From an uncultured Gammaproteobacteria bacterium (lineage in GTDB: Bacteria > Pseudomonadota > Gammaproteobacteria > Steroidobacterales > JABDLF01), in assembly GCA_963759075.1 (NCBI GenBank), contig CAVWXZ010000023.1, forward strand, positions 18,866 through 82,865: a DNA stretch of 64,000 bases, given 5' to 3'. Below are positions 1 through 64,000 of this stretch, piece by piece (positions within the stretch are counted from its first letter, which is position 1; each line of letters starts with the position of its first letter). A model generated the notes under the pieces. The model worked only from the letters and a program-made list of their open reading frames with translations, was not told where the DNA came from and did no database searches. Both the position numbers and the translations under genes were made by a program.

Positions 1-2
1 TT

Positions 3-632
3 GTGTGCGCCTTAGCCTCGGCCTGCGTTTCAACCAGAATCGAGGAATCGCGGCGCGCAGTCACCACCATGAGCAGCGATGAGACAGTCGTCATTCTCGG
101 GCGCACAAAACACACTGACGACGAGACAGAGGCGAGCTTCACCGAATGTGTCAATGATGCGCTCGCCGGCGCCGACTCCCGCCTCGGACTGATCAGCGAA
201 ACAGATTTTGTGGACGCGATGTTTCCGTTCTTTGAGCCGCGACTTGCGCCCGCCAACCTGGATGACCTGGCCCGCATGCTGAATGACCCGCTGGTGGCGC
301 AGAAGATTTCGGAGATTCAGGTCAAGTACCTGGTGTGGCTGGACGGCAACACCGAGACCGTTGACCAGGGCGGCACGATGACCTGCTCGCTCGGCGCCGC
401 CGGTGGCGGTTGTTTTGGCCTCAACTGGTGGGAGCGCGATTCATCTTATGAAGCGACCATCTGGGACATGGAAAGCCTGAACGCCGCGGGCTACATCAGC
501 GCCGACTCCACCGGCACCTCATTCCTGGCCGGCCTTATGGTCCCCATTCCGATCATCGCCCGCACCGGGAAGGCGGCCTGCGAAGGCCTTGCCGGTCAGC
601 TCAGTGAGTTTCTGGCCATGCCGGGCTCGTGA
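3..632 (+). CDS. hypothetical lipoprotein, 5'-truncated by the window edge
   Basis: ORF-track frame. Lipobox-like LASAC lies at the extreme N-terminus, so the true start is just upstream of position 1. No recognisable catalytic motif. Confidence 0.5.
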   Translation: MCALASACVSTRIEESRRAVTTMSSDETVVILGRTKHTDDETEASFTECVNDALAGADSRLGLISETDFVDAMFPFFEPRLAPANLDDLARMLNDPLVAQKISEIQVKYLVWLDGNTETVDQGGTMTCSLGAAGGGCFGLNWWERDSSYEATIWDMESLNAAGYISADSTGTSFLAGLMVPIPIIARTGKAACEGLAGQLSEFLAMPGS

Positions 633-663
633 GCCCGCTGCCTGGTTGCCGGAAGGTGATGAT

Positions 664-2043
664 TCACCCGCCGGGTCGCACGATGGTCAGGTTCTCTTGC
701 AGACGAAATCCTTCGGTTCGTGCGGGTTTACCGTCGATAATGCGCGGGCGAAAGCGCGCTTCCCTGATGTAGCGACGGACCTGCCTGCTGACGGAAGGGC
801 TCGCCTCAAGGTTAACGACCCTTACTTTCAGCACCCGGCCATTTTCCCCGATGGTCAGATCGAACTCGACGTCAATCTCATATTCAACGAGGCTCATGTC
901 AAAGCCCTGCTGCAGCGTCGCAGGGGTCTGGTCCATCAGGTAAATCCGCTTCGGAAAATTGAGCACCATCGGTTCCGAAAACAGGCCCGGCTGATCAGAC
1001 GGCAGTGACCCATCGGCATGCAGGGCATCCCAGCCCTTGCCGTAGGCGTCGGCTGCCAGCGAGCCCCTGTTGATCAGAATATAGAAATCCCCGAGGTGCC
1101 CCCATGCCGCGGCGCGATCCACGGTATCCAGATCATCCTGGGCATCAACGATCGCGACCATTCGTTTCAGAGCCGCCTCGCGCTGCTTCCGATACTGACT
1201 GATCTTGTGTGTGGTCGTGCCCAGTCCGAGCAGCGGCGCAATCAGGCCGGGATCCTCTTTACCTTTCGAATTCTCGATGACCTTAACCGCGCGCTCGTAG
1301 AGCTTTCTCGCATCGCGTACGTTGCCTGCCCGCCTGTACCAGTCTGCCAGCTTCAGAATCGCGGGCACGAGTTCCATGCTCTGCGAACCGAACTTCTGCT
1401 CGCTCACAAAATAGGCAAAGCGATTGTGCCGATCGGCCTCTGCGTAATTGCGCATTGCGACGTAATTGCCCGACATTCTGTCAACGTACTCAAGCTGGTT
1501 CAGGCTGTAAACACCGTCCGCGCGATGCACCACGTGCTGTGCCCGCTGCAGCGACTCGATGGCTTCCTCGTGCTTGCCGGCGGCACTTTGCGCCTCTCCG
1601 AGCAGTGCCAGCGGCCCCGCCAGGCGCATGTCATAGAGGCCATACCATTTTTCGAGCAAGCCTATTTCGCTCTGCAGGGTCGCGGCCGCGGCGGCATTCT
1701 CGCCGGCCGCGAGCTGAGCGAGCGCCAGCGCCTCGAGCGGTGCGGCAAGTGCGATATCATCAGCGCCCACCTGCGCCTCCTCACTCAGCAGCGCCTGCCG
1801 GGCGGACCAGACAGCGGGGTCAGCGGCAGCCGCCTCTGGCGCCGGCGAATCCGCCGCCGGGGTCTCTGGCTCACGCAGGGCTTCTTCTGCCAGGCCGGGT
1901 ACCGCTGCTGCGGCTGGGAGGTTTTCCAGCGGGTCGGCGAGGACCGGCGCAGCGGCAATCGCGTCAGGGCCGGACGCAAGCGCGACCGGCGCGCAGGGCA
2001 AAAGCGCCAGCAGGGCGAAACTCAGCAGTCGTGGGAGATTCAT
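664..2043 (-). CDS. TPR-repeat protein with TonB C-terminal domain
   Basis: ORF 664..2073. An internal Met gives the signal peptide MNLPRLLSFALLALLPCAPVALA. There is an Ala/Pro-rich linker and TPR-like helices. The C-terminus (VEYEIDVEFDLTIGENGRVLKVRV...RFRPRIIDGKP) resembles the TonB_C fold. Start could also be 2073. Confidence 0.7.
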   Translation of the reverse strand: MNLPRLLSFALLALLPCAPVALASGPDAIAAAPVLADPLENLPAAAAVPGLAEEALREPETPAADSPAPEAAAADPAVWSARQALLSEEAQVGADDIALAAPLEALALAQLAAGENAAAAATLQSEIGLLEKWYGLYDMRLAGPLALLGEAQSAAGKHEEAIESLQRAQHVVHRADGVYSLNQLEYVDRMSGNYVAMRNYAEADRHNRFAYFVSEQKFGSQSMELVPAILKLADWYRRAGNVRDARKLYERAVKVIENSKGKEDPGLIAPLLGLGTTTHKISQYRKQREAALKRMVAIVDAQDDLDTVDRAAAWGHLGDFYILINRGSLAADAYGKGWDALHADGSLPSDQPGLFSEPMVLNFPKRIYLMDQTPATLQQGFDMSLVEYEIDVEFDLTIGENGRVLKVRVVNLEASPSVSRQVRRYIREARFRPRIIDGKPARTEGFRLQENLTIVRPGG

Positions 2044-3718: not shown

Positions 3719-5048
3719 TTGCCGAACCTGCGGCTTTCACTGTTAGCCGGTGGCCGCTTCTCTGGGCTCACACGGCCAGCGCCAGACGAGACATTGATTC
3801 AGGCAACCCGGGACGGCAGAACAAGCGCGCGTCACCGAACTGCTGGCGGCCGGTTCGCCGGTCGATACCGTTGACCGGGAGGACTTCTCAGCGCTGCACT
3901 GGGCGGCCACGCTGGGTGAGACCGAGATCGCCCGAACACTGATTGAAGCAGGCGCGGACATCGAGAAACGCGGCCCCCGCCGCGAAACGCCATTGATGCT
4001 GGCGGTCGCTTCGGGCAACCCCGACCTGGTCGCATTTCTGATCAGCAAAGGCGCCAATGTGAAGGAAGTCATGGCCACCCGGCAAACAGCGCTGCACGCT
4101 GCAGCCATCCGCGGCAACACCGAGGCGGCGCGGCTGCTGGTCGCGGCGGGAACGCCCGTCGATGCCGTGACCGAGGGCACAAGACGCTCGGCCCTGCATA
4201 TGGCGTCTGCGGCGGGCGCCACGGACATCGCCCGGCTGCTGCTGGCAAACGGTGCGACGGCTCGATCGGCCCGATTACGCTGGCCAATACGCCCATTATG
4301 CTGGCGATAAGCGGCGATCGGCGCGACACCATCGACTACCTGATCTCTGCCGGCGCCAATTTCAACACCAGCAACCTGACCGGTGCCGCCACGCTACACA
4401 TTGCCGCCGCCGAGGGCAATACCGAACTTGTCAGGAAACTGCTGGACACGGGCATCAAGGTGGACCTGCGCCATGACAACAGGACAACCCCCTGCATTGG
4501 GCTGCGCTGGGTGGCCACCCGACACGGCCAGGCTCCTGATCGAGTCGCGGTGCGAACGTCGAGGCGGCTTTGCGGATTCCCGCGACACGCCGCTGCATGC
4601 GGCAGCGATCGCAGGCAATGAAGACAGTATTCGCCTGCTGCTTGCGGCCGGGGCCAGGGCCGATGTCGTGTCGCGCTACAGCGTAACGCCGCTTGATCAG
4701 GCCGTCGACAATCGCAACTCAGGCGCTGCCCGCCTGCTGATTGAGCACGGCGCAAATGCGAAAAGAACCCGGCGTGGCGGGCGCAGCTATCTGGAGGACG
4801 CAATCGTTTCGGGCAGCCTGCCCATGCTCGAACTCATGCTCGAGCAGGGTCTGGATCCCGGCAGGGGAGACGTCGATGGCGATACGCCACTGCATTTCGC
4901 GGCCTACTACGGGCGCATGGAGATGGCGAAGAAGCTGCTGGCGGCAGGTGCGAGCCGGGAAGCAATTAACCGCGGAGGTTACACGCCGGCCGCTCTCGCG
5001 CGCCGCGCAGGGCATGAAGAGCTGGCGACGTACCTGGAAAAAGGCTGA
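3719..5048 (+). pseudogene. ankyrin-repeat protein with multiple frameshifts
   Basis: ANK motifs (TPLMLAVASGNPDLVAFLISKGANV, TALHAAAIRGNTEAARLLVAAG, TPLHAAAIAGNEDSIRLLLAAGA, TPLHFAAYYGRMEMAKKLLAAGA) are spread over ORFs 3993..4310, 4252..4476, 4298..4621 and 4383..5048 in three frames. Start is uncertain. Confidence 0.7.
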
Positions 5049-5904: not shown

Positions 5905-7110
5905 CTACTCAGCTCGCAAGGCCTCGACAGGCGTCAGCTGGGCGGCGCCACGCGCCGGTAGCACACCCGCCACCAACCCGATGATCACGGCGACCCCTTC
6001 CGCCATGATCACGTACTGCAAATTCGTGTGCACCGGCAGGGCCGGTAGCGCCGCATGCAGAAGCCAGGCGCCGCCAGCGCCCACGATCAGACCCAGCAGA
6101 CCACCCAGCAGCGCAAGAAAAACGGCCTCGGCAAGAAACAAGGCGCAGCACCTGGGCACGGGTAGCACCGAGTGCGCGAAGCAGGCCGATCTCACTGCGG
6201 CGTTCGCGCACGGCGATCGTCATGATGGTGAAGATGCCGACCCCGCCCACCAGCAGCGAAATACCGCCCAGCGCAGCCGACTGCGAAAGTCAGCACGCCG
6301 AGTATCGAGCCCAGCACATCCATCATTTGCTGCTGGGTGGTGATCGTGAAATCCTCGCCCCCGTGGCGTGCAAGCAGGATGCGCCGAATGCCCGCCACGA
6401 CCTCGTCCACGGGCGCGCCTTCGCAGTACAGGACGTCGATCTCCATCAGGCTGTCGCGATTGAACATCTCCAGGGCGCGGGCGGCCGGAATGTAGACCGT
6501 GTCGTCCAGGTCGAATCCGAGCATCTGTCCTTTCGGCTCCATGACCCCGATGACCCGGTAGCGTTCGCCGCCGACCCGAATGCGCTGGCCCAGCGGGCTT
6601 GTCCGCGGCAAACAACTCTTGCTCTGCACCTTGCTCCCCAGCACCGCCAGCGCCCGCGGCGAATTCGGATCATCGCGCGGCAGAAATTCACCCAGCGCAA
6701 CCTCGAATCTGAAGGTACGGGGCATTTCGGCAGTCGGTACCGTAAACCGTGGTGCGCCGCTGACGACCATTGCCCTCCACCTCAGCGTTGCCCTGGGTAA
6801 ACGACACGACCGATTCCGCGTACGGCGCGCGCTTCAGCGCTTCCGCATCCTCGAGGGACAGCGGCCGCACTGTGCCAAAGACGCCGATCGAGGCACCGAA
6901 CGTCGTAGCGCGACCCGGATTGATGCCGATCAGGTTGGTGCCGAACTGGGTGAATTCGGAAATCACGAAGCGGTTGATGCCCTCACCGATCGAGGTCAGC
7001 AGCACCACCGCAGCGATGCCGATCGCGATACCCAGCGTTGTCAGCCCGCTGCGCAGCCGATGCGCCACGACGGCCTGGCCGGTCATCCGCAGCACGTCCC
7101 TGAAGATCAT
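5905..7110 (-). pseudogene. ABC transporter permease (FtsX/MacB-type), second copy, frameshifted
   Basis: Fragments 6688..7344 (from MIFRDVLRMTG), 6192..6770 (periplasmic domain) and 5905..6195 (C-terminus ...LPARGAAQLTPVEALRAE) use frames 0, 2, 0. The start ATG overlaps the upstream stop (ATGA). Confidence 0.75.
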
Positions 7111-8316
7111 TTGCCCGCCAGTGCCGTGACGGGATCCAGTCGCGCGGCCCGCCGCGCCGGCAGTATGCCGAACACCAGCCCGCACAGCACGGCGACAACC
7201 ACGGCAGCAATCACGGCCCACAGCGGCGCGCCCATCGGAATGGCGGGATATAGCCTGCCAATCAGATAGCTGCCCGCCTGCCCCGACCACAAGCCCGAGC
7301 ACCGCGCCGACAAACGAGAGCAGCAGCGCTTCGGTGATGAACAAGCTGCACCACCTGACGTTCCGACGCGCCCATGGACTTGAGCAGGCCGATTTCGGCC
7401 GTGCGCTGACTGACCGCGACCAGCATGACGTTCATGATCAGCACGCCGGCCACGACCAGGCTGATGGCGGCGATGCCGGCCAGGGTCATCGTCAGCGCCA
7501 GGAAAATACGGTCGAAGGTTGCCAGCACCGCGTCCTGGGTGATGACGGTGATGTCTTCTTCGCCCTGGTGGCGCCCGGTGATGATCTCGCGAACCGCCTT
7601 GCTGGCAGCGGGCAGGGCATCCCGCTGCGTGCTTCGACCAGAATCCGAAACAACGACTGCGTATTGAACATGGCCTGGGCGGAGGCCACCGGGATGATGG
7701 CCAGCTCCTGCACGTCGATGCCGATCGAGCGGCCTTCCGAAGCGAGCACGCCGATCACGCGGAAACGCCGATCGCCGATGCGCAGCCACTGGCCGACGGC
7801 CGGCTGATCACCGAAGAGCTCGCTGCGCAGCTTGTCACCAATGACACACACCGAGCTTGCCCGCTGCATGTCGCCACCAGGCAGGAAATCACCGCGCCGC
7901 ATTGTCCAGCGACGCACATCCAGCAGCTCCGCGGTGGAACCCATCACCGGCACTTCGCGCTCCAGCCCCCCGAACGAAACGCCAGCGGAACCGACGACCA
8001 CCGGCGCGATGCGCGCCACACCGTAACTGCGCCGCACGGCCTCGGCATCATCCAGCGTCAGGTCGCGCGGGGTCTGGCCAATGATGATGGCGGGCGCACC
8101 GCCCGAGGTTTCGGTGCGACCCGGGATCACGATCAGCAGGTTGGTACCGAGAGAACTGAATTCTCCGGTTACGTAGCGCCGCGCGCCTTCGCCCAGCGAG
8201 GTCAGCACTACCACTGCGGCGACGCCTATGGCCATGGCCAGCAGCATCAGCAGGCTGCGAATACCGCTGCGCGTCAGGGAACCTGCGGCGAAATGCAGTA
8301 CATCGTAGGCCCTCAT
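7107..8316 (-). pseudogene. ABC transporter permease (FtsX/MacB-type), first copy, frameshifted
   Basis: Fragments 7492..8316 (MRAYDVLHFAAGSL...), 7262..7789 (...SQRTAEIGLLKSMGAS) and 7107..7313 (...LPARRAARLDPVTALAGK) lie in three frames. Confidence 0.75.
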
Positions 8317-8998
8317 GTTTGCGGGCCACGCACGTCGTCCACGATCTTGCCGTCGACCATATGCAGCCTGCGTGAAGCACGCTTGCCGATCTGCGGATCG
8401 TGGGTCACAACGATAAGTGTGATGCCGGCTGCGTTCAGGCGTTCGAGCACCGCAATAACATCCGCGCCGGATGCACTGTCGAGATTGCCGGTAGGTTCAT
8501 CGGCCAGGAGCACTGCGGGCTGCATGATGGTGGCGCGGCCAATCGCGACCCGCTGTCGCTGCCCGCCGGACAACTGATCAGGCCGGTGGCCAGCGCGGTC
8601 CGCCAGGCCCATATCCGCAAGCACCCGGGTCGACCCGCTCCCGCCGCGCCTTCGCGGGCACACCAGCAAGCATCAGGGGCAGTTCTATGTTCTCGAGTGC
8701 CGTCAGCCTCGCGACCAGATGAAAGAACTGAAACACGAAGCCAATTTTCTCGCCGCGCGTATGTGCCTGTTCTGCGTCCGACATCTGCGTGGTATCGCGA
8801 CCATCCAGCAGGTACTGACCGGAGGTCGGCTTGTCCAGCGAGACCCAGGATATTCAGTAGCGTGGACTTGCCCGAGCCGGAGGGCCCCATCAGCGATAGG
8901 TATTCGCCCGCCTCGATTTCAAGGTCGACGGCGTCGAGTGCGTGCACCTGCTCGTCGCCGACCTGGAATGTGCGGTGGATATTACTGAGCGCAAGCAT
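8313..8998 (-). pseudogene. ABC transporter ATP-binding protein (MacB/LolD-like), frameshifted
   Basis: Walker A GPSGSGKST is in 8435..8998. The Q-loop region is in 8578..8784. Signature LSGGQRQRVAIGRA and Walker B LLADEPTGNLD are in 8313..8669. Confidence 0.8.
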
Positions 8999-9009
8999 GG
9001 GTTGTGTCG

Positions 9010-10143
9010 TCAGGGACTGTCTTCTGGCCTGACCCGCGCGCCGTCCACAACGCCGGGCCGGTCTACAGAGATAACGATACGCTGGCCTGGCTCGAGCCCG
9101 GCCGTAACCTCCGAGTATTCCCAGTTGCTGATGCCCCGGGTGACTTTCTGCGCCTTGAGCAGGCCCTGGTCCGCCTCGAAGACCAGCACAGTGTTGCCCT
9201 GCATAATCGCCTGGCTCGGAATCCGCACCACCTCCTTGCGTTCAGCGAGGATCACCTCGACATCAGCGCTGTAGCCCGGAAGCAGCTTCTCCACGGGACC
9301 CGTGAATTCCGCCTCGATCTCCACCGTGCGGGCCTGCTTTTCGATATCAAGCACGTAGGGCGCAATCCGCCTGACCTGAGCGTCAAACCTGCGCCCCGGA
9401 AAGGCATCCATCGTAACCTCCGCCGGCATGCCGGTTTCGATCGCCGGGGCATCAACCTCGTCGATCGGCGCCACGACATACAGGCAGGAATTGTCTACCA
9501 GGTCGATGGCGGGCGGCGTGGGAATGCCTACGGGTGAAGGGGTGATGAACTCACCCTCCTCGCCGTTGATTTCCGCGACCGTGCCCGCGAACGGGGCCCG
9601 CAGCCGGCTGCGCTCGAGCAGATCGTGCGCGAGTTTCACCCCGGCATCTTTCACCTGAATCAGGCTGCGCCCGGCATTACACGCAGCATCACGGGAGCGC
9701 GCCTCGCCAACCGCAGTATCCAGCGCCTCCTCGGAAACCAGGCCCTGGGCCCGCATCTTGCGCAGCCTGTCCGCCTCCTTGGCCGCCACGTCACGCATCA
9801 CGCACGCCTGCACGGCGCTGGCGCCGGTGGCCGCCAGTTCTTTCTCGGCGAGCAGCAGCTGATCCTGGAGGTCAGCGTTCCACAGCTCCAGCAGCAGTTC
9901 GCCGGCCTCTACGCGCTGGCCTTTCCTGACCTTCAGGCTGGCGATCTGCCCACCCATCTGCGGCGCCAGGCGTGCACGTTTGCAGGCCTTGACAGTCCCT
10001 GCTCGCGTATTCGCGATGGTGGCGCGCACATCGCCACGCTCCACGGTGATCAGCGCAACCGCCACTGGCTTTTCACGCAATGCATTCCACGCGATCAGGC
10101 CGATCAGCGACAGTACGATGACAATGATCAGCGCCCGTTTCAT
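9010..10143 (-). CDS. efflux periplasmic adaptor (HlyD/MFP family)
   Basis: Intact 377-aa ORF with an N-terminal TM anchor, a coiled-coil hairpin and a beta-barrel region. It is the first gene of the adaptor-ATPase-permease-permease operon. Confidence 0.85.
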   Translation of the reverse strand: MKRALIIVIVLSLIGLIAWNALREKPVAVALITVERGDVRATIANTRAGTVKACKRARLAPQMGGQIASLKVRKGQRVEAGELLLELWNADLQDQLLLAEKELAATGASAVQACVMRDVAAKEADRLRKMRAQGLVSEEALDTAVGEARSRDAACNAGRSLIQVKDAGVKLAHDLLERSRLRAPFAGTVAEINGEEGEFITPSPVGIPTPPAIDLVDNSCLYVVAPIDEVDAPAIETGMPAEVTMDAFPGRRFDAQVRRIAPYVLDIEKQARTVEIEAEFTGPVEKLLPGYSADVEVILAERKEVVRIPSQAIMQGNTVLVFEADQGLLKAQKVTRGISNWEYSEVTAGLEPGQRIVISVDRPGVVDGARVRPEDSP

Positions 10144-10327
10144 AGGTATCCCCGACGTTGCAACGCGGCCCTCAGCAAAACCACGTGCCTCGCCCGCAGC
10201 GTTACTACCGCCTGCCTGAGGCTACACGTTGCGTGGATGCGGCCCAATAAGGACTTTCCCACGCGCTGATCGTGAGGGGGGCAAGGTCGCGGCATGCGCG
10301 CAGGCAAGATCACCCGCAAAGCGCCTG

Positions 10328-11047
10328 CTATGCGTCCGACGAAGGCGGCTCCACTTCCGCAAGATCTTCATCGAGGATGCGCGATGCAGTGCGCGTGATG
10401 ATGAAAATCACGGTCGACACTGCCAGGAAAGCCACCACGGCGAGAACGGTGCCCGCCATGCCCGTATCCACCTCGCCGCGGGCAACAGCAACGATGTCCT
10501 CTGCTGTGGCCCCGGCAAACACGTACAGCGCGATCACCGGCAGCATGCCCAGCCACGTCGCCAGGGCATAGCGGGACAGGCTGACCGGTGTCAGTCCATA
10601 CAGGTAGTTCAGCAAGTTATAAGGAAATACGATGGACACGCGGGTCAGGAACACCACCTCAAAACCCTTCTTCCTGATGGCCTTGTTCAGCGCGTTAAAC
10701 TTCGGATAGCCCCGCGCCTTGTCGGCAACCCAGTCATGCGCCAGTGTGCGCGCCATCTGGAAAGCGGCGACCGCGCCCAGCAGGCTTGCCACCGACACCA
10801 GCAGCGTGCCCGCCAGCCAGCCATAGAGGTAGCCGGCCGCAACCGTGAGGATCCATCCCGGCGCCATCAGCACCGTAACAAGGATGTAGCAGAGAACATA
10901 AAGCACCATGGAACGCAGCGGATTCGCGCGTGCCCAGTCTGCGTACTCCAGCAAATACTCCATGACCGGATAGCGCACGATCAGAAAAGTAAGCCCGGCA
11001 GCCAGCGCCAGGAGCACTATCAGGGTGCCAATTTTTGAGTGCGACAA
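10328..11047 (-). CDS. TVP38/TMEM64 (DedA-related) family membrane protein
   Basis: Intact 239-aa polytopic ORF. The region PGWILTVAAGYLYGWLAGTLLVSVASLLGAVAAF is typical of the family. Confidence 0.7.
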   Translation of the reverse strand: MSHSKIGTLIVLLALAAGLTFLIVRYPVMEYLLEYADWARANPLRSMVLYVLCYILVTVLMAPGWILTVAAGYLYGWLAGTLLVSVASLLGAVAAFQMARTLAHDWVADKARGYPKFNALNKAIRKKGFEVVFLTRVSIVFPYNLLNYLYGLTPVSLSRYALATWLGMLPVIALYVFAGATAEDIVAVARGEVDTGMAGTVLAVVAFLAVSTVIFIITRTASRILDEDLAEVEPPSSDA

Positions 11048-11059
11048 ACTCCCGACCCT

Positions 11060-47218: not shown

Positions 47219-47235
47219 GTGCTCGATTCTCCGGT

Positions 47236-48729: not shown

Positions 48730-48742
48730 AGTGGTTCCGGTA

Positions 48743-50382: not shown

Positions 50383-50404
50383 CCGGAGCGCCCGGAAACA
50401 CACC

Positions 50405-52581: not shown

Positions 52582-52681
52582 CGCGCGACTATAAGGCAAG
52601 TTGTACGCGCTTTGCAGTTGTTCGCCAAACCGGTACCCTGACCGCACTGTCAGAGCCACAGAGTCGGGACAACATTAGACA

Positions 52682-54283: not shown

Positions 54284-55908
54284 ACACCTCACGCACCAGC
54301 CTGACACTTTTCGAACGTTTCCTTCACCTGTTCACCGTGGTGCGACCCGGCGAGGGTCGCTGCGTATTCCTGATGGTGCTCAAGGGCTTTCTGCTGATGT
54401 TCTCCTATTACATGCTGAAGCCGGTGCGCGAGACGCTGCTGCTGACAGATGGCAGCGCCGAGATCGGCGCCTATTCGGCGGCGCTGTCTGCCGGCCTGCT
54501 GCTGATCGTGATTCCGATTTACAGCTTCTTCTATCGTCGCACCAACCGCGATCGCCTCACCCAGCGTATAACAATATTTTTCATTATTAATCTGATGCTC
54601 TTCTACGTGCTGGGCAAGATGGGCTTGCCGCTTGGCGTCGTGTTTTTCGTCTGGCTGTCGATTTTCAACCTGATGATCGTTGCCCAGTTCTGGGCGTTTG
54701 CGACAGATGTATTCAACGCCAAGACAGGCCAGCGTCTGTTCGCCGTCATCGCCGTTGGTGTGTCGCTGGGCGCCACGCTGGGTTCGCTCAGCTCGGCGAA
54801 ACTGGCGGAGTTGATCAGCGCCTACGACATCATGCTGGCGGCGGCCCTGGTGCTGTGTCTGCCACCGATACTCAGCAGTAAGGCAGAGCGTTCCGTGCCA
54901 CCCGAGTCGCGTGGAGACCGCGGTGAACTTGATAACGGCGCGTCGCAGAATCCGCTGGGCGGTTTCGCCGTCGTTGCGCAGAACTACTACCTGGTGCTGA
55001 TAGCCTTGTTCATCGTGCTGCTCAACTGGATCATGACAACCGGCGATTTCATCCTGCGATCCTGGGTGGTCGAGTATGCGGCGAACATCATCGCCACCAG
55101 CGGGGCGGCCACTCTCAGCAGGGGTGAAATTATCGGCCGCTTTTACGGCAATTTTTTTGCCCTGATTTCAGTCATCAGCATGCTGATCCAGCTGTTCCTG
55201 GTGTCGCGAATTTTCCGCTATTTTGGCGTACGCATTGCCGTCATGATCATGCCGGTTGTCCTGATTCTCAGTTACGGGATCATCGGCTTCATTCCGGTAT
55301 TTACCATTATTCAGTGGGCGCGCACCCTGGAAATCAGCACCAATTATTCGCTGCAGAACACGGCTCGCCATGCCCTGTTCCTGCCGACAGCGCGTTCCGA
55401 TAAATATGAGGGCAAGACCACCATCGACACCTTCTTCTGGCGTTTCGGTGACATGGTCCAGGCGGCTGCCATTTATGCCGGCATACACTGGTTCGGATTC
55501 GAGGCACGCGAATTTGCCCTGACCAATGTCGGCCTGGCGGTGATCATGTTCGGAGTATCCTGGCTGATCGGCAACGAGTATTCCCGGCTGATGCGCGCCA
55601 ACGTTGCCAGCACGCCTCCGGTCGTGAGTCGGACCCTGATCAATATTTCCGCGCGCCCCGGCGAAAAGATCGAACACTATATCGATGCGGACAGCTTTAT
55701 TGATGCAGATCCCGGGGATATCCTCATTTACCATGCGCGCCTGGTCAGCGGCCAACCGCTGCCTTCCTGGTTGCACTTCAATAGCCGTGCACTGGTGTTC
55801 AGGGGTCGTTGTCCTGAAAGCTTCGCTGAAACCCTGGAAATCGAAGTAACCGCCACCGATATCGATGGCCTGTCAGTCAGCGATACCTTTCTCGTCGAGC
55901 CGGCCTGA
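54280..55908 (+). CDS. TLC/Npt-type (ATP/ADP-translocase-like) transporter homologue with a C-terminal Ig-like (He_PIG/cadherin-like) domain
   Basis: Intact 542-aa ORF. The GTG start overlaps the phoA stop (GTGA). The N-terminal motif is FLLMFSYYMLKPVRETLLL, followed by about 11-12 TM segments. The last ~100 aa read ...GQPLPSWLHFNSRALVFRGRCPE...IEVTATDIDGLSVSDTFLV. Confidence 0.6.
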   Translation: MNTSRTSLTLFERFLHLFTVVRPGEGRCVFLMVLKGFLLMFSYYMLKPVRETLLLTDGSAEIGAYSAALSAGLLLIVIPIYSFFYRRTNRDRLTQRITIFFIINLMLFYVLGKMGLPLGVVFFVWLSIFNLMIVAQFWAFATDVFNAKTGQRLFAVIAVGVSLGATLGSLSSAKLAELISAYDIMLAAALVLCLPPILSSKAERSVPPESRGDRGELDNGASQNPLGGFAVVAQNYYLVLIALFIVLLNWIMTTGDFILRSWVVEYAANIIATSGAATLSRGEIIGRFYGNFFALISVISMLIQLFLVSRIFRYFGVRIAVMIMPVVLILSYGIIGFIPVFTIIQWARTLEISTNYSLQNTARHALFLPTARSDKYEGKTTIDTFFWRFGDMVQAAAIYAGIHWFGFEAREFALTNVGLAVIMFGVSWLIGNEYSRLMRANVASTPPVVSRTLINISARPGEKIEHYIDADSFIDADPGDILIYHARLVSGQPLPSWLHFNSRALVFRGRCPESFAETLEIEVTATDIDGLSVSDTFLVEPA

Positions 55909-57882
55909 CACCACAACGCCCTGCCGCAGAATTTCGTCGCGCCGCTTAAGGATGGCGCGCAGCTGCTTCTTCTGCAGCAGGTCGCCCACCAGCTCATGCA
56001 GCGTATCGCGATCCAATGCCGCCAGGCGCTCAGCGAGCGGTTCAGGTATGCGCAGGGGCGCATTTTCGTAAACAGGCGGTCTGCCGCGGTGGGTACGAAA
56101 GGCGCGTGAATGATCGATCAGGCGCACCAGCCCCTTGTCCCGATCAAACAGCACGTTGCTCTGATTGCGATCCTCGTTATAGATCAATACGTCGAAGATC
56201 CGCATCAGATCGTACTGCTCCTGGACGTCGCAGGCCGGATAGATCGCTACATTTTGCTGACGCCTTTCCAGGTCGCTGATGGAATTTTCTACCCAGAACT
56301 GCAGGGATCCCGACTCGCCCGAAAATTCGCGCGCAACGGTCACCGGGATGAGATCGATGCCAAGAAACTTGTCCAGCCGATAGGCCGCGATATCGTTCCT
56401 GTAACTGTCGGAGATATTGAGGCGAGAGTCCCGGCGCGTGCCGGTGCCTTCGCTGGTGTCAGTGTCCTCGCCCTTGAACACAGCACGCAGGGTCAGGTCG
56501 TCCTTGCTGAGCGTCAACCGCCGGGGCTTGGTCACGCCCATCCCCAGCGCCTCGCTGCCTGTGATCTCTGCGTCGGCGAGGAACAGCTCCAGATCGTCAT
56601 CGGTGACGCCGGCCGGCCGCGTGCCCAGGCTACGGACTTCTGTGTCGGGCTCAGTCCAGAGGTTCTGATCGGCGTAGTAAGCACGCAGACCGGCCCGCGT
56701 GATTTCCAGCGCAGAAGCGCGCCCTTCGTAGTAGGGCAACATTCCGGTGTCGATCATCAGCAGGCGCTCGCCGAGCCGCCCGGTAATCCTGCGCGTCGGC
56801 GTCGGCGTGTGCCCCACCACCACCCGGCGGGCGCCCAGGTTGTCCAGCGCCGAGGCCAGGCGGCCGCTTTCCCAGAGCGGGTGACACCATGCGTTGCCCC
56901 GATACCAGAGCGGGCCATCCACCCTGAAGATCAGTGCCGACTGCATCCCGACGTAGGCCTGCAGCAGGGCGACCTGATCCGGACTCAGGTCTGGCACAAG
57001 CAGCTCGGCAGCGACCGGCGCAGCGTTACTGTCCGGGTCCTGCCCGGCCCCGGCAGCCTGCCGCTCCGCCTGCGCGGCGATTAGCCGCTCCGCCGTATCA
57101 AAGCGCTCGCCGTAGTCGTCCAGCCTGCCGATCAGCCCCTCGTTGATGAGCCTGCGGGTCAGGGCCAGGTAGTCCGACAACTCCTCGTGCATCCTCGCGT
57201 TCAGCTGCTCGCCGGGCTGTGATGCCATGGCTGCAGACAGCCCGCCGTGCACAAAGACGGTGTCACCGATACGCAGCACATATGGCAGCCCGTCGATCCA
57301 GCGGCCGTAGCGACCGGACAGTGAAAACGCCTTGCGGTGGGCGAAAAAGCCGGGTGGATGCTCCGCCGCAAACCGCTCGCGCGCCGCCGCTTCTGCCTGC
57401 GAATCCAGCGCGTGATCACCCAGGTAATCCTGCAAGGCCGCCGCCCTGTCGCGGGGGTCTTCCTCGGCAGCAAAGGCCGCGTACTCTCCGAGCGACACGT
57501 AGCGCAGGTCGCTGGTGATGTTCATGACTTCGTGATTGCCCGGCACGACGTGCAGACGACCACCGGCAGCAATTGCCTCCTCCTGGAGCCGCATCAGCAG
57601 CTCCATGACCCGCCTGGAGTCGGCGCCGCGGTCGAGCAGGTCGCCGACGCTGACCAGGTGGGTCTTACCCCCCTGCCAGCGGTTTTGCTCGTCGATCAGG
57701 CCCGTGCCGCGCAGGACCGCGAGCAGCTCCGGCCAGGCGCCGTGGACATCGCCAATAGCCACGACGCGCTCCGCGGCAGGAAAACTCCAGGCTGCAGCCT
57801 GCGTCGGCTGGGCATGCAGAAAATTCGCCGCTAGCAGCGAAATAAGCGCGTAGAGCGCGCGCGGGAAGAGGAGTCGAGCCAT
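55873..57882 (-). CDS. secreted PPP-family metallophosphoesterase fused to a PI3/PI4-kinase-like C-terminal domain
   Basis: Internal Met of ORF 55873..57975 gives the signal peptide MARLLFPRALYALISLLAANFLHA. GDVHG, GDLLDRG and GNHE are present. The C-terminus reads LIYNEDRNQSNVLF...LIDHSRAF (DRxxxN ... IDH pattern). Confidence 0.7.
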   Translation of the reverse strand: MARLLFPRALYALISLLAANFLHAQPTQAAAWSFPAAERVVAIGDVHGAWPELLAVLRGTGLIDEQNRWQGGKTHLVSVGDLLDRGADSRRVMELLMRLQEEAIAAGGRLHVVPGNHEVMNITSDLRYVSLGEYAAFAAEEDPRDRAAALQDYLGDHALDSQAEAAARERFAAEHPPGFFAHRKAFSLSGRYGRWIDGLPYVLRIGDTVFVHGGLSAAMASQPGEQLNARMHEELSDYLALTRRLINEGLIGRLDDYGERFDTAERLIAAQAERQAAGAGQDPDSNAAPVAAELLVPDLSPDQVALLQAYVGMQSALIFRVDGPLWYRGNAWCHPLWESGRLASALDNLGARRVVVGHTPTPTRRITGRLGERLLMIDTGMLPYYEGRASALEITRAGLRAYYADQNLWTEPDTEVRSLGTRPAGVTDDDLELFLADAEITGSEALGMGVTKPRRLTLSKDDLTLRAVFKGEDTDTSEGTGTRRDSRLNISDSYRNDIAAYRLDKFLGIDLIPVTVAREFSGESGSLQFWVENSISDLERRQQNVAIYPACDVQEQYDLMRIFDVLIYNEDRNQSNVLFDRDKGLVRLIDHSRAFRTHRGRPPVYENAPLRIPEPLAERLAALDRDTLHELVGDLLQKKQLRAILKRRDEILRQGVVVSGRLDEKGIAD

Positions 57883-58044
57883 GTATACCCCCGGCTTTTC
57901 CGGATAACTGCTGTCTGGCCGGCGGTATATCCGACCAGTACCAAGTTTAGTCGGTTCAACACAATCGCGTGTCAACCTTGTAAGGGCACGCGAGTTCTGG
58001 AACTATCATCGCCCGGCCGGAGACCCGGCCTGACCCCTTTTCGC

Positions 58045-59344
58045 ATGGAGACCCGTACCGTGTTCAAGCACCAAGCAAGACTGATTGCCATCGCAGCGCT
58101 TCTGCTCGGTACGGCCACGGCCCTGGCGCAGGACGCCAACAACCCCTGGTACGTGGCGGGGCTGGCAAGCTATGTGGATGACGATGCAGACCGTTTCGTC
58201 GATGACGGGCTCAGCGGGGGCCAACTGGCGTTAGGAATACCCTTCGGAGCGACCTGGAGCGTGGAACTGTTCGGCTCTGTACAACGAGTTCAATGCAGAC
58301 GGCTACGACGCGGACCAGGAGCAAAAGGGCCTGGGTATTGGCGCCGTGCGCCGGTTCAACACGCGCGGCAAGCTGCAGCCCTACTTTACCGTCGCGGGCG
58401 GCTATTCGAAGACCACCCGTGATTCCGGCATCGACGAGTCGGCGCCCATGGCCTCCGGGGCGTTGGGTCTGCTGGTCAATTTCGGTCAATCGCGCTTCGC
58501 CTGGCGCAGCGAGGCGCGCTACAGGCAGGTACTGGAAGACGTGTCGCTTGCCGATATTTACCTGAGCACCGGGCTGCAGATCGCCCTGGGGCACCGCGAG
58601 GACAGCGGCATCGATGATGACGATGTTACCGACGGTGATGGCGACGGGATCCCGGACGCCATCGACCGCTGCCCGCAAAGCAGGCCGGGCGTAGTCGTGG
58701 ACGCGGTGGGCTGCGCCGCCGCGGACGATGACTTCGACGGCGTATCGAATCGGCTGGACCGCTGCCCGCGCACGCCGCGCAACGTGGCGGTTAACAGCCG
58801 CGGCTGCCCGCCGGACAGCGACCGGGACGGCGTGATCGATGCGCTGGATGCCTGTCGCGGCACGCCCTGGGGCGTTGACGTGGACGAACGCGGTTGCTCC
58901 GCGGTGCGTGATGCCGATGGCGACGGGATTGCCGACGAAGCGGATCGTTGCCCGGCTACCCAATCGGGACTTGCGGTGGATAAGACAGGCTGCCCGCTAC
59001 CGAAACGCATTGATTTGCCCGGCGTCGCATTCGAAAACAATTCGAGCCTGCTGGTTCCGGGCAGCACCCGCACTCTCGACCAGGCGGCCGCGATCCTGCT
59101 CGCCAATCCGGGGCTGCGCGCACAGGTGGCCGGTCACACCGATGATGTGGGCGAGGCCTCTTACAATCTCTGGCTTTCGCAACGGCGCGCCAACGCGGTA
59201 CGCACTTACCTGATAGCCAGGGGCGTCGCAGGTGAGCGCCTGACCGCGCAGGGCTTCGGCGAAACCCAGCCGGTAGCCGATAACGGCAGCGCCGCGGGGC
59301 GCGCCCGCAATCGTCGCGTGGAGCTGCGCACTATCTCGCAATAA
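58045..59344 (+). pseudogene. OmpA-family outer-membrane protein with thrombospondin type-3-like repeats, frameshifted near 58280-58350
   Basis: The signal peptide and first barrel strands are in 58045..58422, the remainder in 58346..59344. Four DxDxDGxxDxxDxCP repeats are present. The OmpA_C motif is GHTDDVGEASYNLWLSQRRANAV...NRRVEL. Confidence 0.8.
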
Positions 59345-60257: not shown

Positions 60258-62347
60258 GTGCCATTGGACCAGTCCCTTTCAGAGTACTTGAGTAACGGAC
60301 TCCGGGCGCATCGGGAGCAGCGCCTGGAAGACGCAGCGAGCGCCTACCAGGCAGCGCTGCGTATGGCGCCAGATAGCTTCGATGCCCTGCAGTTACTCGG
60401 CATGCTGAGACACCAGGAGGGCCGGATTCCCGAAGCGAGATCGCTACTCGAGCGAGCCGTTGCCGCGCGGCCCGACCATCCCGGCGCGCTGAACAACCTC
60501 ACGGCGGTCCTGCTCGCCGCGGGTCAACCGGCAGAAGCAGCAGCACACTCCCGCAGGGCGCTGGCAGTGTCACCGGATGACGCGCTTGCGCTCTATTACC
60601 TGGGCTGCGCGCTGCGCCTGCTCGGGCAAAACAGGGAAGCTGCCGCTGCACTTGAACGCTCGCTCGCCATCCGGCCTGGCGCAGCCGATACCCGCAACCT
60701 GCTGGGCATCCTGTGTCACGAACAGGGTCGATTTTCTGCTGCGGCCGGCCACTTCGAAACCGCGCTGCGGTCGCGGCCCGGGCATCCCGAGTACCTGAAC
60801 AACCTCGGCTTCGCACTGCTGGAGGACGGTCAGCCAGGCGCCGCACGCGCGGCGCTTGAAGCGGCGGTACGGGGGCGACCGGGGTTCGGCGAGGCACTGG
60901 TCAACCTGGGTCGCGCACTGCATCAGCTGGGGCTCGATGGCGAGGCCATCGGCGTTTTCAGCAAGGCGCGTGAGCTCGATGCAAATGTGGCGGCCGTGCC
61001 ACATCAATCTGGGCATTTCGCTGCACGCGCTCGGGCGGGCGGATGAAGCTGAACAGGCGTATACAGCCGCGCTCGACATACCAGCCGACAACGTTTCCGC
61101 ACTGGCCATCTCGCCGCGCTTTACGAGAGCGCGAATCGACTTGCGGCAGCCGAACAGACCTTGCAGCGCGGTCTCTCGGTTGCGCCGGATGATCCGTTCC
61201 TCAATCTAGTGGCAGCCAAATGCGAACGACGGCGCGGTGATTACGACGAGGCGGAGCGACGGGTTACACGCAATCACTCGCTTCGTCACCAGGCGACAAA
61301 TGGTCGCAGGCGCTTTATTACGAGCTCGCCCGGATTCGAGGATCGCGCCGGTGCCTATTCGCAGTCGATGGCGGCAGCAAGCAAGGCCAACCAGCTCGCG
61401 CTCGGCGACTGGCGGGGTGGGGCGGCGGCGGACAATCCCTATAACAGGATGCTCGCTCAGCTCAGCGCCGCCGTCGAAGGCAGCTGGATCGAAGACTGGT
61501 CGCCACTCGGCGAGCAGGGGGCGGGCCCGGCGCCGGTGTTCCTGGTGGGATTCCCGCGCTCCGGCACCACCTTGCTGGACACCATCATTGGCAGCCACCC
61601 GGACTTTCGTGGTGCTCGAGGAGCAAGCCCGCCGTCGAGGCCATGCGGTTGACGCTCGATCAGCAGCCAGGTGGTTTCATCCGGGCCCTGAGCACGCTGG
61701 ATGAGGCCGGCCGCGCTGGCGCTGGCGTGCACGCTACTGGCAGGAAGCTGCAGACGCACCTCCATGAACCGCTGGGCGACCGGCGCCTGCTGGACAAGCT
61801 GCCTCTCAACATCGTGATGCTGCCGCTGATCAAGCGGGTCTTCCCGGACGCGCGGGTCATACTCGCGCTGCGTCACCCCGCCGACGTTTGCCTCAGCTGT
61901 TTCTTCCAGGAGTTCGACTACCGGCGGGCACCTGCGATGGCCAATTTTCTCTCGCTGCAGGACACCGTGGATTTCTACGGCGAAGGTCTTCGGCCTGTGG
62001 CGGCACTATCGAGCACAAGCTCGCGCTGCAAGGTGCATACGGTCCGCTACGAAGACCTGGTAGTCGACACCGAAGGGGTCACCCGCGCGCCTGTTCGATT
62101 TTCTTGGCAGCGCCTGGGATCCCCGCGTGCTCGATTATCACCGGGGGGTGCCGTGACGCGGGGTACCATCGATACACCAAGTTACCATCAGGTCAGCCAG
62201 CCCATCTACACTCGGGCCCGCTATCGCTGGCGACATTACGAATCCGCGCTCGCGCCCTGGCTGGACACCCTGCACGACTGGGCGGAAAAGCTCGGCTATG
62301 CGCGGCTCGCGGCCGAACCTGCAGACCAGAGCGACTATGACCACTGA
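60258..62347 (+). pseudogene. TPR-repeat / sulfotransferase-domain protein, at least 3 frameshifts
   Basis: TPR units are in 60258..61046 and 60856..61209. The PAPS-binding motif FLVGFPRSGTTLLD is in 61161..61652. The sulfotransferase C-terminal part (ILALRHPADVCLSCF...) is in 61643..62347. Confidence 0.7.
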
Positions 62348-63338
62348 ACAAAAGAGCTCAGACGATTGGGACCTGTACTGGGCGCACGGCTACCTGACCT
62401 CGTGCGCCAACGCCTTCCCCGGCAACTACGAGGGGCAGATTCGCGCGGTGTGGGAGCAGTTCTTTGCCGAGCTGGATTCCGGCGCCCGGCTCCTGGATCT
62501 GGCCACCGGCAACGGCGCCATCGCGCTGCTGGCGGCCAACTACGCCATTGCGAATCAACGAAATTTCGAGATTCATGGCATCGACCGGGCCCGGATAAAT
62601 CCGGCTGCCGCGTGGCAGGGAGACCCCGCCGTTCTGGAGGCGGGTGCAGCTTCCGGGGCCAGACCGGCGGCCGAACGCACCGGCTTCCCTGCTGCGCATT
62701 TTTCCGCGGTAACCGGCCAATACGCCCTGGAATACACCGATATTCCCGCCACGCTCAAGGAGCTCGCCCGGATCCTGGCGCCGGGGGGCCGGGGCCGCTT
62801 CGTCATGCATCATCCGGACTCCGTGGTGATTCAGACCGGCCGGGAGGAGACCGGCCACGGCGAGCTGCTCTTCCGGGACACCCACCTGTTCGAGAAGGCC
62901 GAGGCTTTGCTGCGCTGCATCATGACGGCGGACTCGCCCGAGGCGCTGGCGAGGCTCGCCAAAGACCCCGACGCCCAGGCGGCCAGGACTGCTCTGAACG
63001 AGGCGGCGGCCCGGATCGGCCAGGCGATCGAGGCGACCTCGGAGCCGGATCTGCTGACCACGGCGCTGGGCTACGTAGGCCGGGCGATTGAGGAACGCGC
63101 AGCGCTCGGAGCTGAGCAAACTCTGGCCCTCCTGAGCCGCGGGCGGCGGGAGATCGAGGCCAACCTGGCCCGGCTTGGAGATCTGTTGAGCGCTGCCGTG
63201 TATCCGGAACAAATGCTTGAAATACAATCACTTATGAAGAAACTGGGGCTGCAGCCCGGCGCGCCCGAAACTCTCAGCTACACGCACGAGGGTCGCCCAC
63301 TCCTGATGGGCTGGCTGCTCGACATCCGGGCGTCCTGA
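62337..63338 (+). CDS. class I SAM-dependent methyltransferase
   Basis: Internal ATG of ORF 62298..63338, overlapping the upstream stop (ATGACCACTGA). Motif I is RLLDLATGNGAIAL. The post-I/II regions are plausible. Confidence 0.65.
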   Translation: MTTEQKSSDDWDLYWAHGYLTSCANAFPGNYEGQIRAVWEQFFAELDSGARLLDLATGNGAIALLAANYAIANQRNFEIHGIDRARINPAAAWQGDPAVLEAGAASGARPAAERTGFPAAHFSAVTGQYALEYTDIPATLKELARILAPGGRGRFVMHHPDSVVIQTGREETGHGELLFRDTHLFEKAEALLRCIMTADSPEALARLAKDPDAQAARTALNEAAARIGQAIEATSEPDLLTTALGYVGRAIEERAALGAEQTLALLSRGRREIEANLARLGDLLSAAVYPEQMLEIQSLMKKLGLQPGAPETLSYTHEGRPLLMGWLLDIRAS

Positions 63339-63906
63339 ACGCCGGCTTTCTTGCCTTGTCCGCGCCCTGGCTGAGCGTCGTTTTCGGCCTTCCACGGGGC
63401 CATCCGACGCCCCAAATTTTGTGTTGCGTTTTTACTACACGCCGCAGAAAGCAAACCGGAAATGTTGCGATGTTGCATCAACACAACAACCTGGCGACCC
63501 GGCTTGTGGCGCCTGCTGACGGCCGGCCGAGCGCCAGATTAACTGTCGAAGTATTGAAATAATTTTACTTAAACGCACCTAAGTTATTGGCTTAATAGAG
63601 GGTTCTACAGGCCCGGTTCGGGCCTGGCTGCGGCGCTGAGGACACCTCGACCGAGCATGTCTGTAGCCAATCCGCCGCAGGCCAATTTTGCCTGTGCATG
63701 TGTAATTTTTTTACCACATAACCTTGCCTTTCGGATTTTCTGTGCTAATCTTCGGCTACCGCGGGCACCAGCCCGGGTGCTCGCCTGTGGATATAGGCCG
63801 GGCCGAACGTCGCCACACATAGGAGCTTAATAACCTTGAAGTGGCACGCAAGCGGAAAACTTAGATCCTTACAACACAATCTACCTCTACCTAGGAGAGG
63901 CACTTA

Positions 63907-64000
63907 ATGAAAAAACACAACCTTCTTCGTAACGCGGTGCACGTCGCACTGACGGCCGGAGTCGCAACCACCGGCGGCATTGCGTATGCCGCTGACGACG
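63907..64000 (+). CDS. 5' end of a secreted protein (possibly another TonB-dependent receptor), truncated by the window edge
   Basis: An AGGAGAG Shine-Dalgarno lies 7 nt upstream of the ATG. Translation gives MKKHNLLRNAVHVALTAGVATTGGIAYAADD, a signal-peptide-like sequence. Confidence 0.5.
   Translation, partial: MKKHNLLRNAVHVALTAGVATTGGIAYAADD

Follow-up and report, generated by a model that had tools for sequence, protein, structure and literature searches.

Patchy frameshifts in a 64-kb segment of a gammaproteobacterial contig and their probable origin in consensus error

In P. aeruginosa, a high-GC gammaproteobacterium, indels arise mostly in repeats and homopolymers, which held 7 of 8 wild-type indels and 108 of 108 indels in mismatch-repair-deficient cells (PMC4702332). 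Natural sets of bacterial pseudogenes combine indels with nonsense substitutions, and the indels are mostly deletions and repeat-associated (PMC6054270, PMC2817411, PMC4702332). Sequencing errors have profiles of their own. In PacBio data, errors occur at random, indels outnumber substitutions about 15-fold, and neither homopolymers nor GC introduce a bias (PMC4719071); substitutions, insertions and deletions in PacBio CLR data occur at 6:55:39 (PMC9713900). Errors in ONT data are biased to deletions and homopolymers (PMC9713900, PMC9262707). Residual indels that fragment genes in long-read assemblies, and tools for their repair, have been described (PMC12007338, PMC9262707), and sequence filled into gaps from long reads does not reach Q40 without polishing (PMC8848313).

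Here we analyze 64 kb (the window) of a 123,986-bp contig from an uncultured gammaproteobacterium. The window contains 70 frame-shifting lesions across 25 of its approximately 52 genes. These frameshifts are very probably base-calling or consensus errors of the deposited assembly and not mutations of the organism, a technical origin that we infer from the assembled sequence rather than from reads.

Frame-shifting lesions in the window

Frameshift-aware protein-to-DNA alignment against orthologues of syntenic relatives yielded 52 of the 70 events, those in HemG included. The further 18 were called with a codon-usage Viterbi HMM, which took the place of a GC3 frame plot that was too noisy at 62% GC. 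For ten of the 18, support later came from E. coli Upp, PncB, LolD and MacB, which are distant references at approximately 30-47% identity; five are based on Pfam domains that span the junction, two on three-frame reading and one on ORF overlap alone. Overall, for 8 of the 70 events the evidence comes solely from the HMM path, junction-spanning Pfam domains, three-frame reading or overlapping ORFs. Aligner artefacts upstream of true starts (for example, 24712-24827 and 48743) were dropped, and stop-to-stop ORF references were replaced by called proteins.

A reading made earlier from the sequence alone had proposed that about 30 genes can be reconstructed only if ORF fragments from different frames are joined. 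Such joining worked for many genes, but the number of affected genes was 25. In the frame-joined proteins, Pfam matches were full-length across the junctions for DUF1853 (1-285 of 285) and Flavodoxin_5 (1-144 of 145), and those to PfkB (1-301 of 302) and OMP_b-brl_4 (1-796 of 838) likewise ran through them. The window had no tRNA or Rfam match, so RNA genes could not be used as independent error probes. The dirty (lesion-bearing) and clean segments are as follows; rows without a sign have no single strand assigned.

3830..4567 (+): dirty patch in an ankyrin-repeat gene (3794-5039), 7 events (four +1, two -1, one +2); L014 orthologue at 54% identity, HMM frames +2/+1/+2, Ank Pfam matches on the joined protein
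6142..8842 (-): two MacB-like permeases and an ABC ATPase, dirty, 8 events (seven +1, one -1); HMM path, with positions and types reproduced by E. coli MacB/LolD alignment; MacB_PCD, FtsX and ABC_tran Pfam matches on the joined protein
8843..11644: HlyD-family and VTT-domain genes, clean for 2.8 kb; single ORFs, HlyD Pfam matches; VTT gene aligned to L014 over 236 of 238 aa with 0 events
11645..13283 (-): HAD (1 event), CDP-alcohol phosphatidyltransferase (4) and acyl-CoA thioesterase (6), dirty, ten +1 and one -1; frames joined, 62%, 73% and 80% identity to L014, respectively
14923..16173 (+): mid-gene dirty patch in an 1172-aa coiled-coil gene (13744-17381), 7 events of mixed type; L014 and L015 orthologues (59% identity) concur on 14923, 15375, 15970, 16021 and 16173
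16174..20371: TonB-dependent receptor and isochorismatase, clean for 4.2 kb; receptor with 0 events versus L014 and L015, isochorismatase Pfam profile matched at 2-173 of 175
20372..24080: sparse lesions, namely NAPRTase (+1 at about 20372 and 20615), DUF1853 (22103) and PhoD (+1 at 24080); HMM path, NAPRTase_N across the junction, E. coli PncB, L015/L017 orthologues
24081..31507: TonB receptor, intergenic repeat region, APH/AAA_33 kinase and the final 1.6 kb of the OMP gene, clean for 7.4 kb; 0 events versus L015/L017 orthologues at 55-76% identity
31508..32307 (-): internal dirty patch in a 1112-aa outer-membrane barrel (OMP) gene (29912-33294), 5 events, all +1; four backed by 5 of 5 reference alignments (L015, L016, L017), 32307 by 3 of 5
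34061..39364: dirty, ten events in Exo_endo_phos (2), PhoD-like (4), a 359-aa protein (1), deaminase (1), UPRTase (1) and PfkB kinase (1); L015 orthologues at 67-76% identity, E. coli Upp, Pfam domains across junctions; event 36509 by HMM path and ORF overlap only
41891..44036 (-): HemG (two +1, placed by E. coli HemG alignment) and an octaheme tetrathionate-reductase-family cytochrome c (four +1), dirty; cytochrome events 43282, 43649, 43776 and 44036 at the same sites in 8 of 8 top-scoring references (74-78% identity), localised with 15 reference alignments for three events and 3 for 44036
46405..49206 (-): deoC and two aldehyde-dehydrogenase genes, dirty, 8 events, all +1; at least 8 metagenome references at 62-82% identity, positions unanimous
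49207..58273: largest clean block, 9.07 kb, with thymidine kinase, PAS-GGDEF, cation-efflux, alkaline phosphatase, He_PIG and Metallophos proteins; intact ORFs, full-length Pfam matches (TK 1-176 of 176, Alk_phosphatase 1-419 of 423, Cation_efflux 3-198 of 198)
58274 (+): lone +1 event in an OmpA-like gene; HMM frame switch with an OMP_b-brl domain across it
60995..61615 (+): 3 events in a TPR-sulfotransferase gene (60258-62347); TPR repeats carry on from frame to frame (TPR Pfam matches), Sulfotransfer_3 bridges the 61615 junction

Lesion type, context and distribution

The 70 lesions comprised 55 +1 events, 4 +2 events, 7 clear -1 events and 4 ambiguous events. Insertions thus number at least 59 and deletions at most 11, which gives an insertion share of at least 84%, and the predominance of +1 events over the other 15 was significant (binomial p = 1.7e-6). 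The lesions had been described as pure +/-1 indels, and this symmetry was not found. Pairs of shifts very near each other had also been reported, and several were confirmed (4257/4276, 12133/12158, 13069/13085 and 13261/13283).

The same reading had placed the lesions that it could localise in short homopolymers, as would be expected if they were homopolymer-length errors of nanopore, 454 or Ion Torrent data. We tabulated the context of the 33 insertions that could be localised. Twenty-two were isolated bases, and a best candidate within a run of 3 or more was possible for only three, one of which, at 11645, was placed unambiguously in a run of 3. For comparison, runs of 2 or more hold 43% of the bases of the whole window and runs of 3 or more hold 13%. 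Two of the proposed seats survive as possible repair sites: the A5/T5 run at 41896-41900 adjoins the hemG junction, and the C3 run at 43772-43774 is a near-best candidate for the cytochrome. Orthologue alignments, however, favor isolated bases in both cases, at 41891 and 43776, respectively. A third run, G4 at 48025-48028, adjoins event 48013 but is explicitly not the site of that lesion: shortening it gives T-G-R-R-I-V, whereas removal of an isolated C gives T-G-A-A-I-V, the residues of the aligned orthologues. An excess of insertions also runs counter to the deletion- and homopolymer-biased residual errors of ONT data (PMC9713900, PMC9262707, PMC4719071). Homopolymer-length error is therefore a decidedly improbable source of these frameshifts.

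Where the inserted base had a unique candidate, it was G in 8 events and C in 1 (p = 0.04), which is only suggestive of strand-asymmetric G insertion; with ambiguous events weighted, the numbers were 14.9 and 8.2. The junctions shared no slippery motif, and most had no run at all.

The lesions were strongly clustered. Dirty blocks delineated in the sequence-only reading (31.9 kb) hold all 70 events, and its clean blocks (23.7 kb) hold none. We compared the observed positions with 20,000 uniform placements within coding DNA. The six largest lesion-free gaps totaled 30.1 kb versus 18.5 +/- 2.0 kb expected, and 33 one-kb bins were empty versus 21.7 +/- 2.5 expected; none of the 20,000 simulations matched either value. 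In the same simulations, the longest lesion-free gap, 9.07 kb, had p = 0.002. The proposal of a spatially structured mosaic was thus borne out.

We distinguished 24 dirty patches in the window, 0.1-1.5 kb in length, with event densities inside them of 1 per 75-300 bp and a peak of 6 events in 374 bp. The density proposed earlier, one indel per 300-400 bp, needs correction: it is 1 per 456 bp in the blocks as first drawn and 1 per 75-300 bp in these tighter patches. The block at 29.9-39.9 kb, which had been listed as dirty, is not uniformly so and includes clean DNA (for example, 29.9-31.5 kb). Patch boundaries fell within genes, and clean and dirty stretches occur side by side in three of them, the OMP gene, the 1172-aa gene and the cytochrome gene. 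Up to 7 lesions lie within 1.25 kb of one gene whose flanks are untouched; in the coiled-coil gene, the first and the last 1.2 kb are clean.

Three candidate causes of the patches were rejected. GC content was not associated with them (0.628 versus 0.623, p = 0.14). None of the repeat arrays inside the window (27.1-28.2, 45.2-46.2 and 59.4-59.7 kb) falls in a patch. Repeats between genomes, by which dirty genes would be better conserved, were not indicated either, as mean identity to relatives was approximately 64% in both classes.

Coding integrity and origin of the frameshifts

In true-frame alignments, we found no in-frame stops, in agreement with the earlier remark that substitution-type nonsense codons are absent. 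Random substitutions in the window would create a stop in 2.9% of cases. At a substitution-to-indel ratio of approximately 5.5:1 (PMC4702332), natural decay would have left about 11 nonsense codons. Alignment of the frame-joined proteins to orthologues from related genomes showed that similarity resumes directly past each shift, as had been claimed. In three related genomes (L014, L015 and L017) and at more than 20 metagenome loci, each orthologue is one unbroken ORF wherever a site is covered. With frames joined, identity to the same relatives was 54-82% for dirty genes and 54-76% for clean genes.

These comparisons were made at some evolutionary distance. The searched collections held no conspecific genome, and the nearest relatives showed 55-80% protein identity. 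A scan of the genome collection with the TonB receptor returned only distant, non-syntenic relatives. When the 353-aa protein and the cytochrome were combined in one query, cytochrome matches dominated, and the resulting loci (L018-L020) were not syntenic. Loci from the metagenome scan have in common only the three-gene operon at 46.25-49.65 kb.

Proteins of 559 aa and 455 aa with out-of-frame N-termini have been publicly deposited from the same NCBI/ENA contig. Since these truncated fragments are in the record, the lesions belong to the deposited sequence.

That the lesions sit in the deposited record would also be expected if the region had undergone genuine, very recent pseudogenisation, for example by genome decay or a local burst of mutagenesis, and the immediate return of orthologue similarity past each shift would suit very young lesions. 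The absence of nonsense codons where about 11 are expected argues against such decay, as do the predominance of insertions, most of them outside repeats and homopolymers, and the concentration of lesions within a gene with clean flanks. Moreover, conserved metabolic genes are among those hit (hemG, NAPRTase, UPRTase, aldehyde dehydrogenase and the octaheme cytochrome), we saw no IS elements in the window, and dirty genes are not less similar to their relatives. We consider pseudogenisation decidedly unlikely. It is very unlikely that the extra bases are real and come from an unfamiliar process that inserts single nucleotides in kilobase patches (such as error-prone repair synthesis), or are removed by a bacterial deletion-editing system at the RNA level that keeps the genes functional. 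Real shifts might also be bypassed in vivo through recoding (programmed frameshifting, transcriptional slippage or RNA editing). This would explain why the frames on both sides stay fully conserved but nothing else, and is exceedingly unlikely given orthologues uninterrupted in every relative, junctions without a common slippery motif, the density of events and patchiness that is unrelated to genes.

Consensus indel error in low-quality or long-read-only segments, which had been preferred to regional pseudogenisation from the start, is thus supported by the lesion type, the position of most insertions outside homopolymers, the lack of stops, patches that ignore gene boundaries, equal identity of dirty and clean genes, and intact orthologues. 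Of the arguments first offered for it, only the homopolymer context did not hold up. Indels without an excess of substitutions or nonsense codons, distributed by segment and not by gene, are what an assembly artefact generally leaves. The best reading is that the patches are unpolished low-depth consensus, because natural bacterial indels fall almost exclusively in repeats and homopolymers and are accompanied by many more substitutions. The contig would then be a patchwork, in which accurate sequence, in stretches of up to 9 kb, is interrupted by patches of approximately 0.1-1.5 kb that carry approximately 0.3-2% residual indel error. It may have been produced from a long-read backbone partially corrected by accurate short reads or, alternatively, by low-depth long-read consensus bridging short-read contigs.

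Insertion-dominated indels that are independent of context and GC, with no visible substitutions, resemble PacBio CLR errors rather than those of nanopore, 454 or Ion Torrent data. This attribution is a loose one, of compatibility only, because the insertion share of at least 84% exceeds the 55:39 of raw PacBio CLR.

Consequences and comparison with known systems

Because the pattern points to assembly errors rather than dead genes, all 25 affected genes are best regarded as intact in vivo. In the public record, these 25 of approximately 52 window genes are mis-called as truncated fragments, and much of the 124-kb contig is probably mis-called likewise. Among them are hemG, the octaheme tetrathionate-reductase-family cytochrome c, NAPRTase, UPRTase, the deoC/aldehyde-dehydrogenase operon, and the phosphatases and outer-membrane receptors of an apparent phosphate-scavenging region. 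Such a record distorts pseudogene counts, estimates of pathway completeness, pangenomes and protein-family clustering. Frameshift correctors that treat only homopolymers would overlook most errors of this kind. Conversely, frameshift density provides a read-free map of unpolished segments in a hybrid assembly. As an artefact, the pattern has little biological interest, but its practical importance is high.

The locus resembles bacterial pseudogenes of decaying genomes in that many neighboring genes are frameshifted, but it differs from natural pseudogene sets in having no nonsense codons, no dominance of deletions and no association with repeats. It is closer to unpolished or partly polished long-read assemblies, with which it shares adjacent ORF pieces, similarity continuing in another frame, a few indels per kb and truncated deposited calls. 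In the usual unpolished assembly, errors are contig-wide, whereas here they occur in short patches, and in nanopore assemblies, the best-documented case, errors are biased to deletions and homopolymers, whereas here they are insertions outside homopolymers. As in PacBio CLR data, indels greatly outnumber substitutions, insertions exceed deletions, and positions follow neither homopolymers nor GC; the insertion share, higher than in raw CLR reads, would need a consensus step or very low depth. Short-read gaps are usually caused by repeats or GC extremes, and the patches coincide neither with repeats inside the window nor with GC extremes. In its overall architecture, with accurate blocks of up to 9 kb joined by patches of 0.1-1.5 kb at approximately 0.3-2% indel error, the window is like the product of hybrid gap closure or bridging.

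Frameshifts along the window

Reading frames were followed by two approaches. A reference-free frame path was obtained with a codon-usage hidden Markov model (Viterbi HMM; one state for each of six coding frames plus a non-coding state), and frame-shifting events were placed and typed by aligning proteins locally to the DNA, with frameshifts allowed as explicit moves. Because extra-base and missing-base moves cost the same, the aligner had no bias to either lesion type. Three relatives syntenic with the window (loci L014, L015 with L016, and L017; protein identity of 45-80%) supplied orthologues.

Syntenic references
Window 2.9-19.2 kb: L014, GCA_013003115.1
Window 13.7-36.8 kb: L015, GCA_024643845.1, together with L016
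Window 24-32 kb: L017, Logan contig

The octaheme cytochrome was compared with many homologues (~77% identity), and the operon of deoC and two aldehyde dehydrogenases with many metagenome homologues (62-82% identity). Genes without such references were aligned to HemG, Upp, PncB, LolD, and MacB of E. coli K-12.

Across the whole window, the frame path and the alignments yielded 70 frame-shifting events in 25 of ~52 genes, so the sequence-only reading was essentially right that many genes need frame-joining. Fifty-two events came from the first-round reference alignments, E. coli HemG included, and 18 from the HMM path. Ten of the latter gained subsequent support from E. coli Upp, PncB, LolD, and MacB; five more have a Pfam domain across the junction, two rest on frame reading, and one (36509) on ORF overlap only. 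The most events per gene, seven, were found in an ankyrin-repeat gene and in a gene for a 1172-aa coiled-coil protein. Once the HMM frames were joined, Pfam matches were full-length across the junctions.

Pfam matches on frame-joined proteins (matched positions/model length)
DUF1853, 1-285/285
Flavodoxin_5, 1-144/145
UPRTase, 7-206/206
PfkB, 1-301/302
OMP_b-brl_4, 1-796/838
PhoD, 5-314/343
Cytochrome_cB, 1-172/173

The proposed mosaic of disrupted and intact blocks was borne out: all 70 events lie within the blocks called dirty and none in those called clean. As a null model, 70 events were placed uniformly in coding DNA 20,000 times. The six longest stretches free of events exceeded expectation (30.1 kb in total versus 18.5 ± 2.0 kb), as did the number of empty one-kb bins (33 versus 21.7 ± 2.5), neither value being reached in any simulation. 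The variance-to-mean ratio of event counts was 1.9 (p = 1e-4 against the same placements). The clustering is thus not due to chance. The largest gaps span 9.07 kb (49206-58274) and 7.43 kb (24080-31508). No link between GC content and events was found in the window (p = 0.14).

Grouping events at most 500 bp apart gave 24 patches, 11 of them single events. The 13 multi-event patches span 0.1-1.5 kb, with one event per 75-300 bp. Patch borders fall inside genes. The OMP gene has 1.6 kb of clean sequence followed by 0.8 kb dirty and 1.0 kb clean; the 1172-aa coiled-coil gene is dirty in its central 1.25 kb only; and in the cytochrome gene the 3' 0.75 kb is clean, with all four events in the following 0.75 kb.

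Type and sequence context of the lesions

Described from sequence alone as pure +/-1 indels, the lesions proved to be asymmetric. One extra base was found in 55 of the 70 (versus the other 15, p = 1.7e-6), two extra bases in 4 (4567, 16021, 34360, and 35534, with no orthologue residue absent), and a clear one-base loss in 7; 4 were ambiguous. Since no orthologue residue is missing from the displayed alignments of one-extra-base events, these are true insertions rather than two-base deletions.

The argument that lesions sit in homopolymers was not upheld. For 33 clean-flanked insertions, each possible one-base removal was scored against up to 15 orthologues. All best candidates were isolated bases in 22 of the 33, and at least one was in 30. 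A best candidate in a run of at least 3 occurred in only 3, and a single insertion (11645) was unambiguously in a run of 3. As background, runs of at least 2 make up 43% of the bases in the window, and runs of at least 3 make up 13%. The two repairs suggested earlier are compatible with the data and are not required: at the hemG junction (41891-41900), for which the T5 run at 41896-41900 had been proposed, the E. coli alignment favors removal of C at 41891, preserving the conserved R-Y-P-R-Y motif; at the cytochrome junction, 15 references favor isolated base 43776 over the C3 run at 43772-43774. The G4 run adjoining event 48013 was explicitly ruled out as its site by orthologue alignment.

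Of the 12 inserted bases that could be uniquely assigned, 8 were G on the plus strand of the window and only 1 was C, irrespective of gene strand (p = 0.04); example sites in this tally are 3831, 4542, 31757, 32013, 35148, 43776, 46405, and 47586. Strand-asymmetric error of this kind would fit a consensus from very few same-orientation reads, though the signal is weak.

Gene content and repeats

Besides ordinary metabolic genes, the window (62% GC) carries genes for TonB-dependent receptors, phosphatases, the octaheme cytochrome c, and a MacB-type efflux system. The closest relatives belong to uncultured marine Gammaproteobacteria, some matches carrying Woeseiaceae-like names, and gene order at 13.7-36.8 kb is kept in L015. 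Phosphate-scavenging functions are concentrated in two segments.

Phosphate-scavenging set, 23.4-36.8 kb and 52.7-58.0 kb
Two PhoD-family phosphatases, an Exo_endo_phos nuclease/phosphatase, an alkaline phosphatase, and a Metallophos protein
Also in the set: two TonB-dependent receptors and a large OMP barrel

The longest ORF (892 aa, plus strand, 1018-3696) is over-extended and shows how high GC inflates ORFs here: only its last ~450 aa are the M48 peptidase, whose orthologue has 453 aa, and the part before them overlaps a genuine TPR/TonB_C gene on the minus strand (664-2073).

Three sets of repeats were observed. A tandem array at 45196-46200 has five copies with a period of ~225-250 nt; four copies share a 96-nt core at 92-100% identity, the fifth has it at 69%, and a pair of complete 225-nt units shows 99% identity. 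The 373-aa minus-strand ORF covering it (45044-46165) has an R/S/P-rich translation that is not protein-like, and the HMM scored the region as non-coding; the array is probably a non-coding repeat. A 26-31-nt unit (TGTAGATCGGGGTCAGACTGCTATCTC) is arrayed at 27105-27284 and 28004-28162, direct at 27.1-27.3 kb and inverted at 28.07-28.16 kb. These arrays bracket ~0.8 kb of poorly coding, low-GC DNA that separates a TonB receptor from an APH/AAA kinase gene, and they may represent arrays of binding sites or a small mobile element. Within a 257-aa minus-strand ORF (59379-60152), a 45-nt unit of 15 codons occurs in six to seven tandem copies (59392-59706); given the weak match of this ORF to histone-H1-like HC2, the predicted product is probably a lysine/alanine-rich repeat protein.

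Origin of the frameshifts

The lesions are present in the deposited sequence itself. Exact look-ups assigned two intact proteins of the window to one public contig of 123,986 bp in NCBI and ENA. That contig is also the source of two fragment ORFs that occur, residue for residue, in a public protein collection.

Deposited fragments, each including an out-of-frame N-terminal extension
29909-31588, minus strand, 559 aa
16017-17384, plus strand, 455 aa

In no true-frame alignment was there an in-frame stop codon, as the sequence-only reading had noted, and identity to the same relatives does not differ between dirty and clean genes. In P. aeruginosa mutation-accumulation lines, the substitution-to-indel ratio is 5.5:1 (PMC4702332), and 2.9% of random substitutions in this window would give a stop. 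Seventy natural indels would therefore imply ~385 substitutions and ~11 nonsense codons. Lesion type, context, the lack of stops, and patches crossing genes thus support the earlier preference for consensus indel error over pseudogenisation. We consider it highly probable that the frameshifts are an assembly artefact, of little biological interest. They carry real practical weight, as deposited gene calls are wrong for about half of the window genes. The patchwork would arise if accurate short-read sequence had been merged with low-depth long-read consensus and polishing was incomplete; long-read gap fills are known to remain below Q40 (PMC8848313).

Gene decay, whether selection-driven or neutral, is very unlikely because the patches disregard gene boundaries. 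Moreover, nearly all single-base indels that arise naturally in a high-GC gammaproteobacterium fall in repeats or homopolymers (PMC4702332), and bacterial genomes are biased toward deletions (PMC2817411, PMC6054270); the window lesions are the opposite in every respect. As to the source of an artefact, the error signature is insertion-dominated, homopolymer-independent, and GC-independent, with no visible substitutions. Nanopore, 454, or Ion Torrent error does not fit, the signature being at odds with their published profiles (PMC9713900, PMC9262707, PMC4719071). PacBio continuous long reads have random errors, with indels ~15 times as frequent as substitutions and a substitution:insertion:deletion ratio of 6:55:39 (PMC4719071, PMC9713900). 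The window signature agrees with this description, its insertion share being more extreme than the raw-read ratio, and such reads are the putative source.
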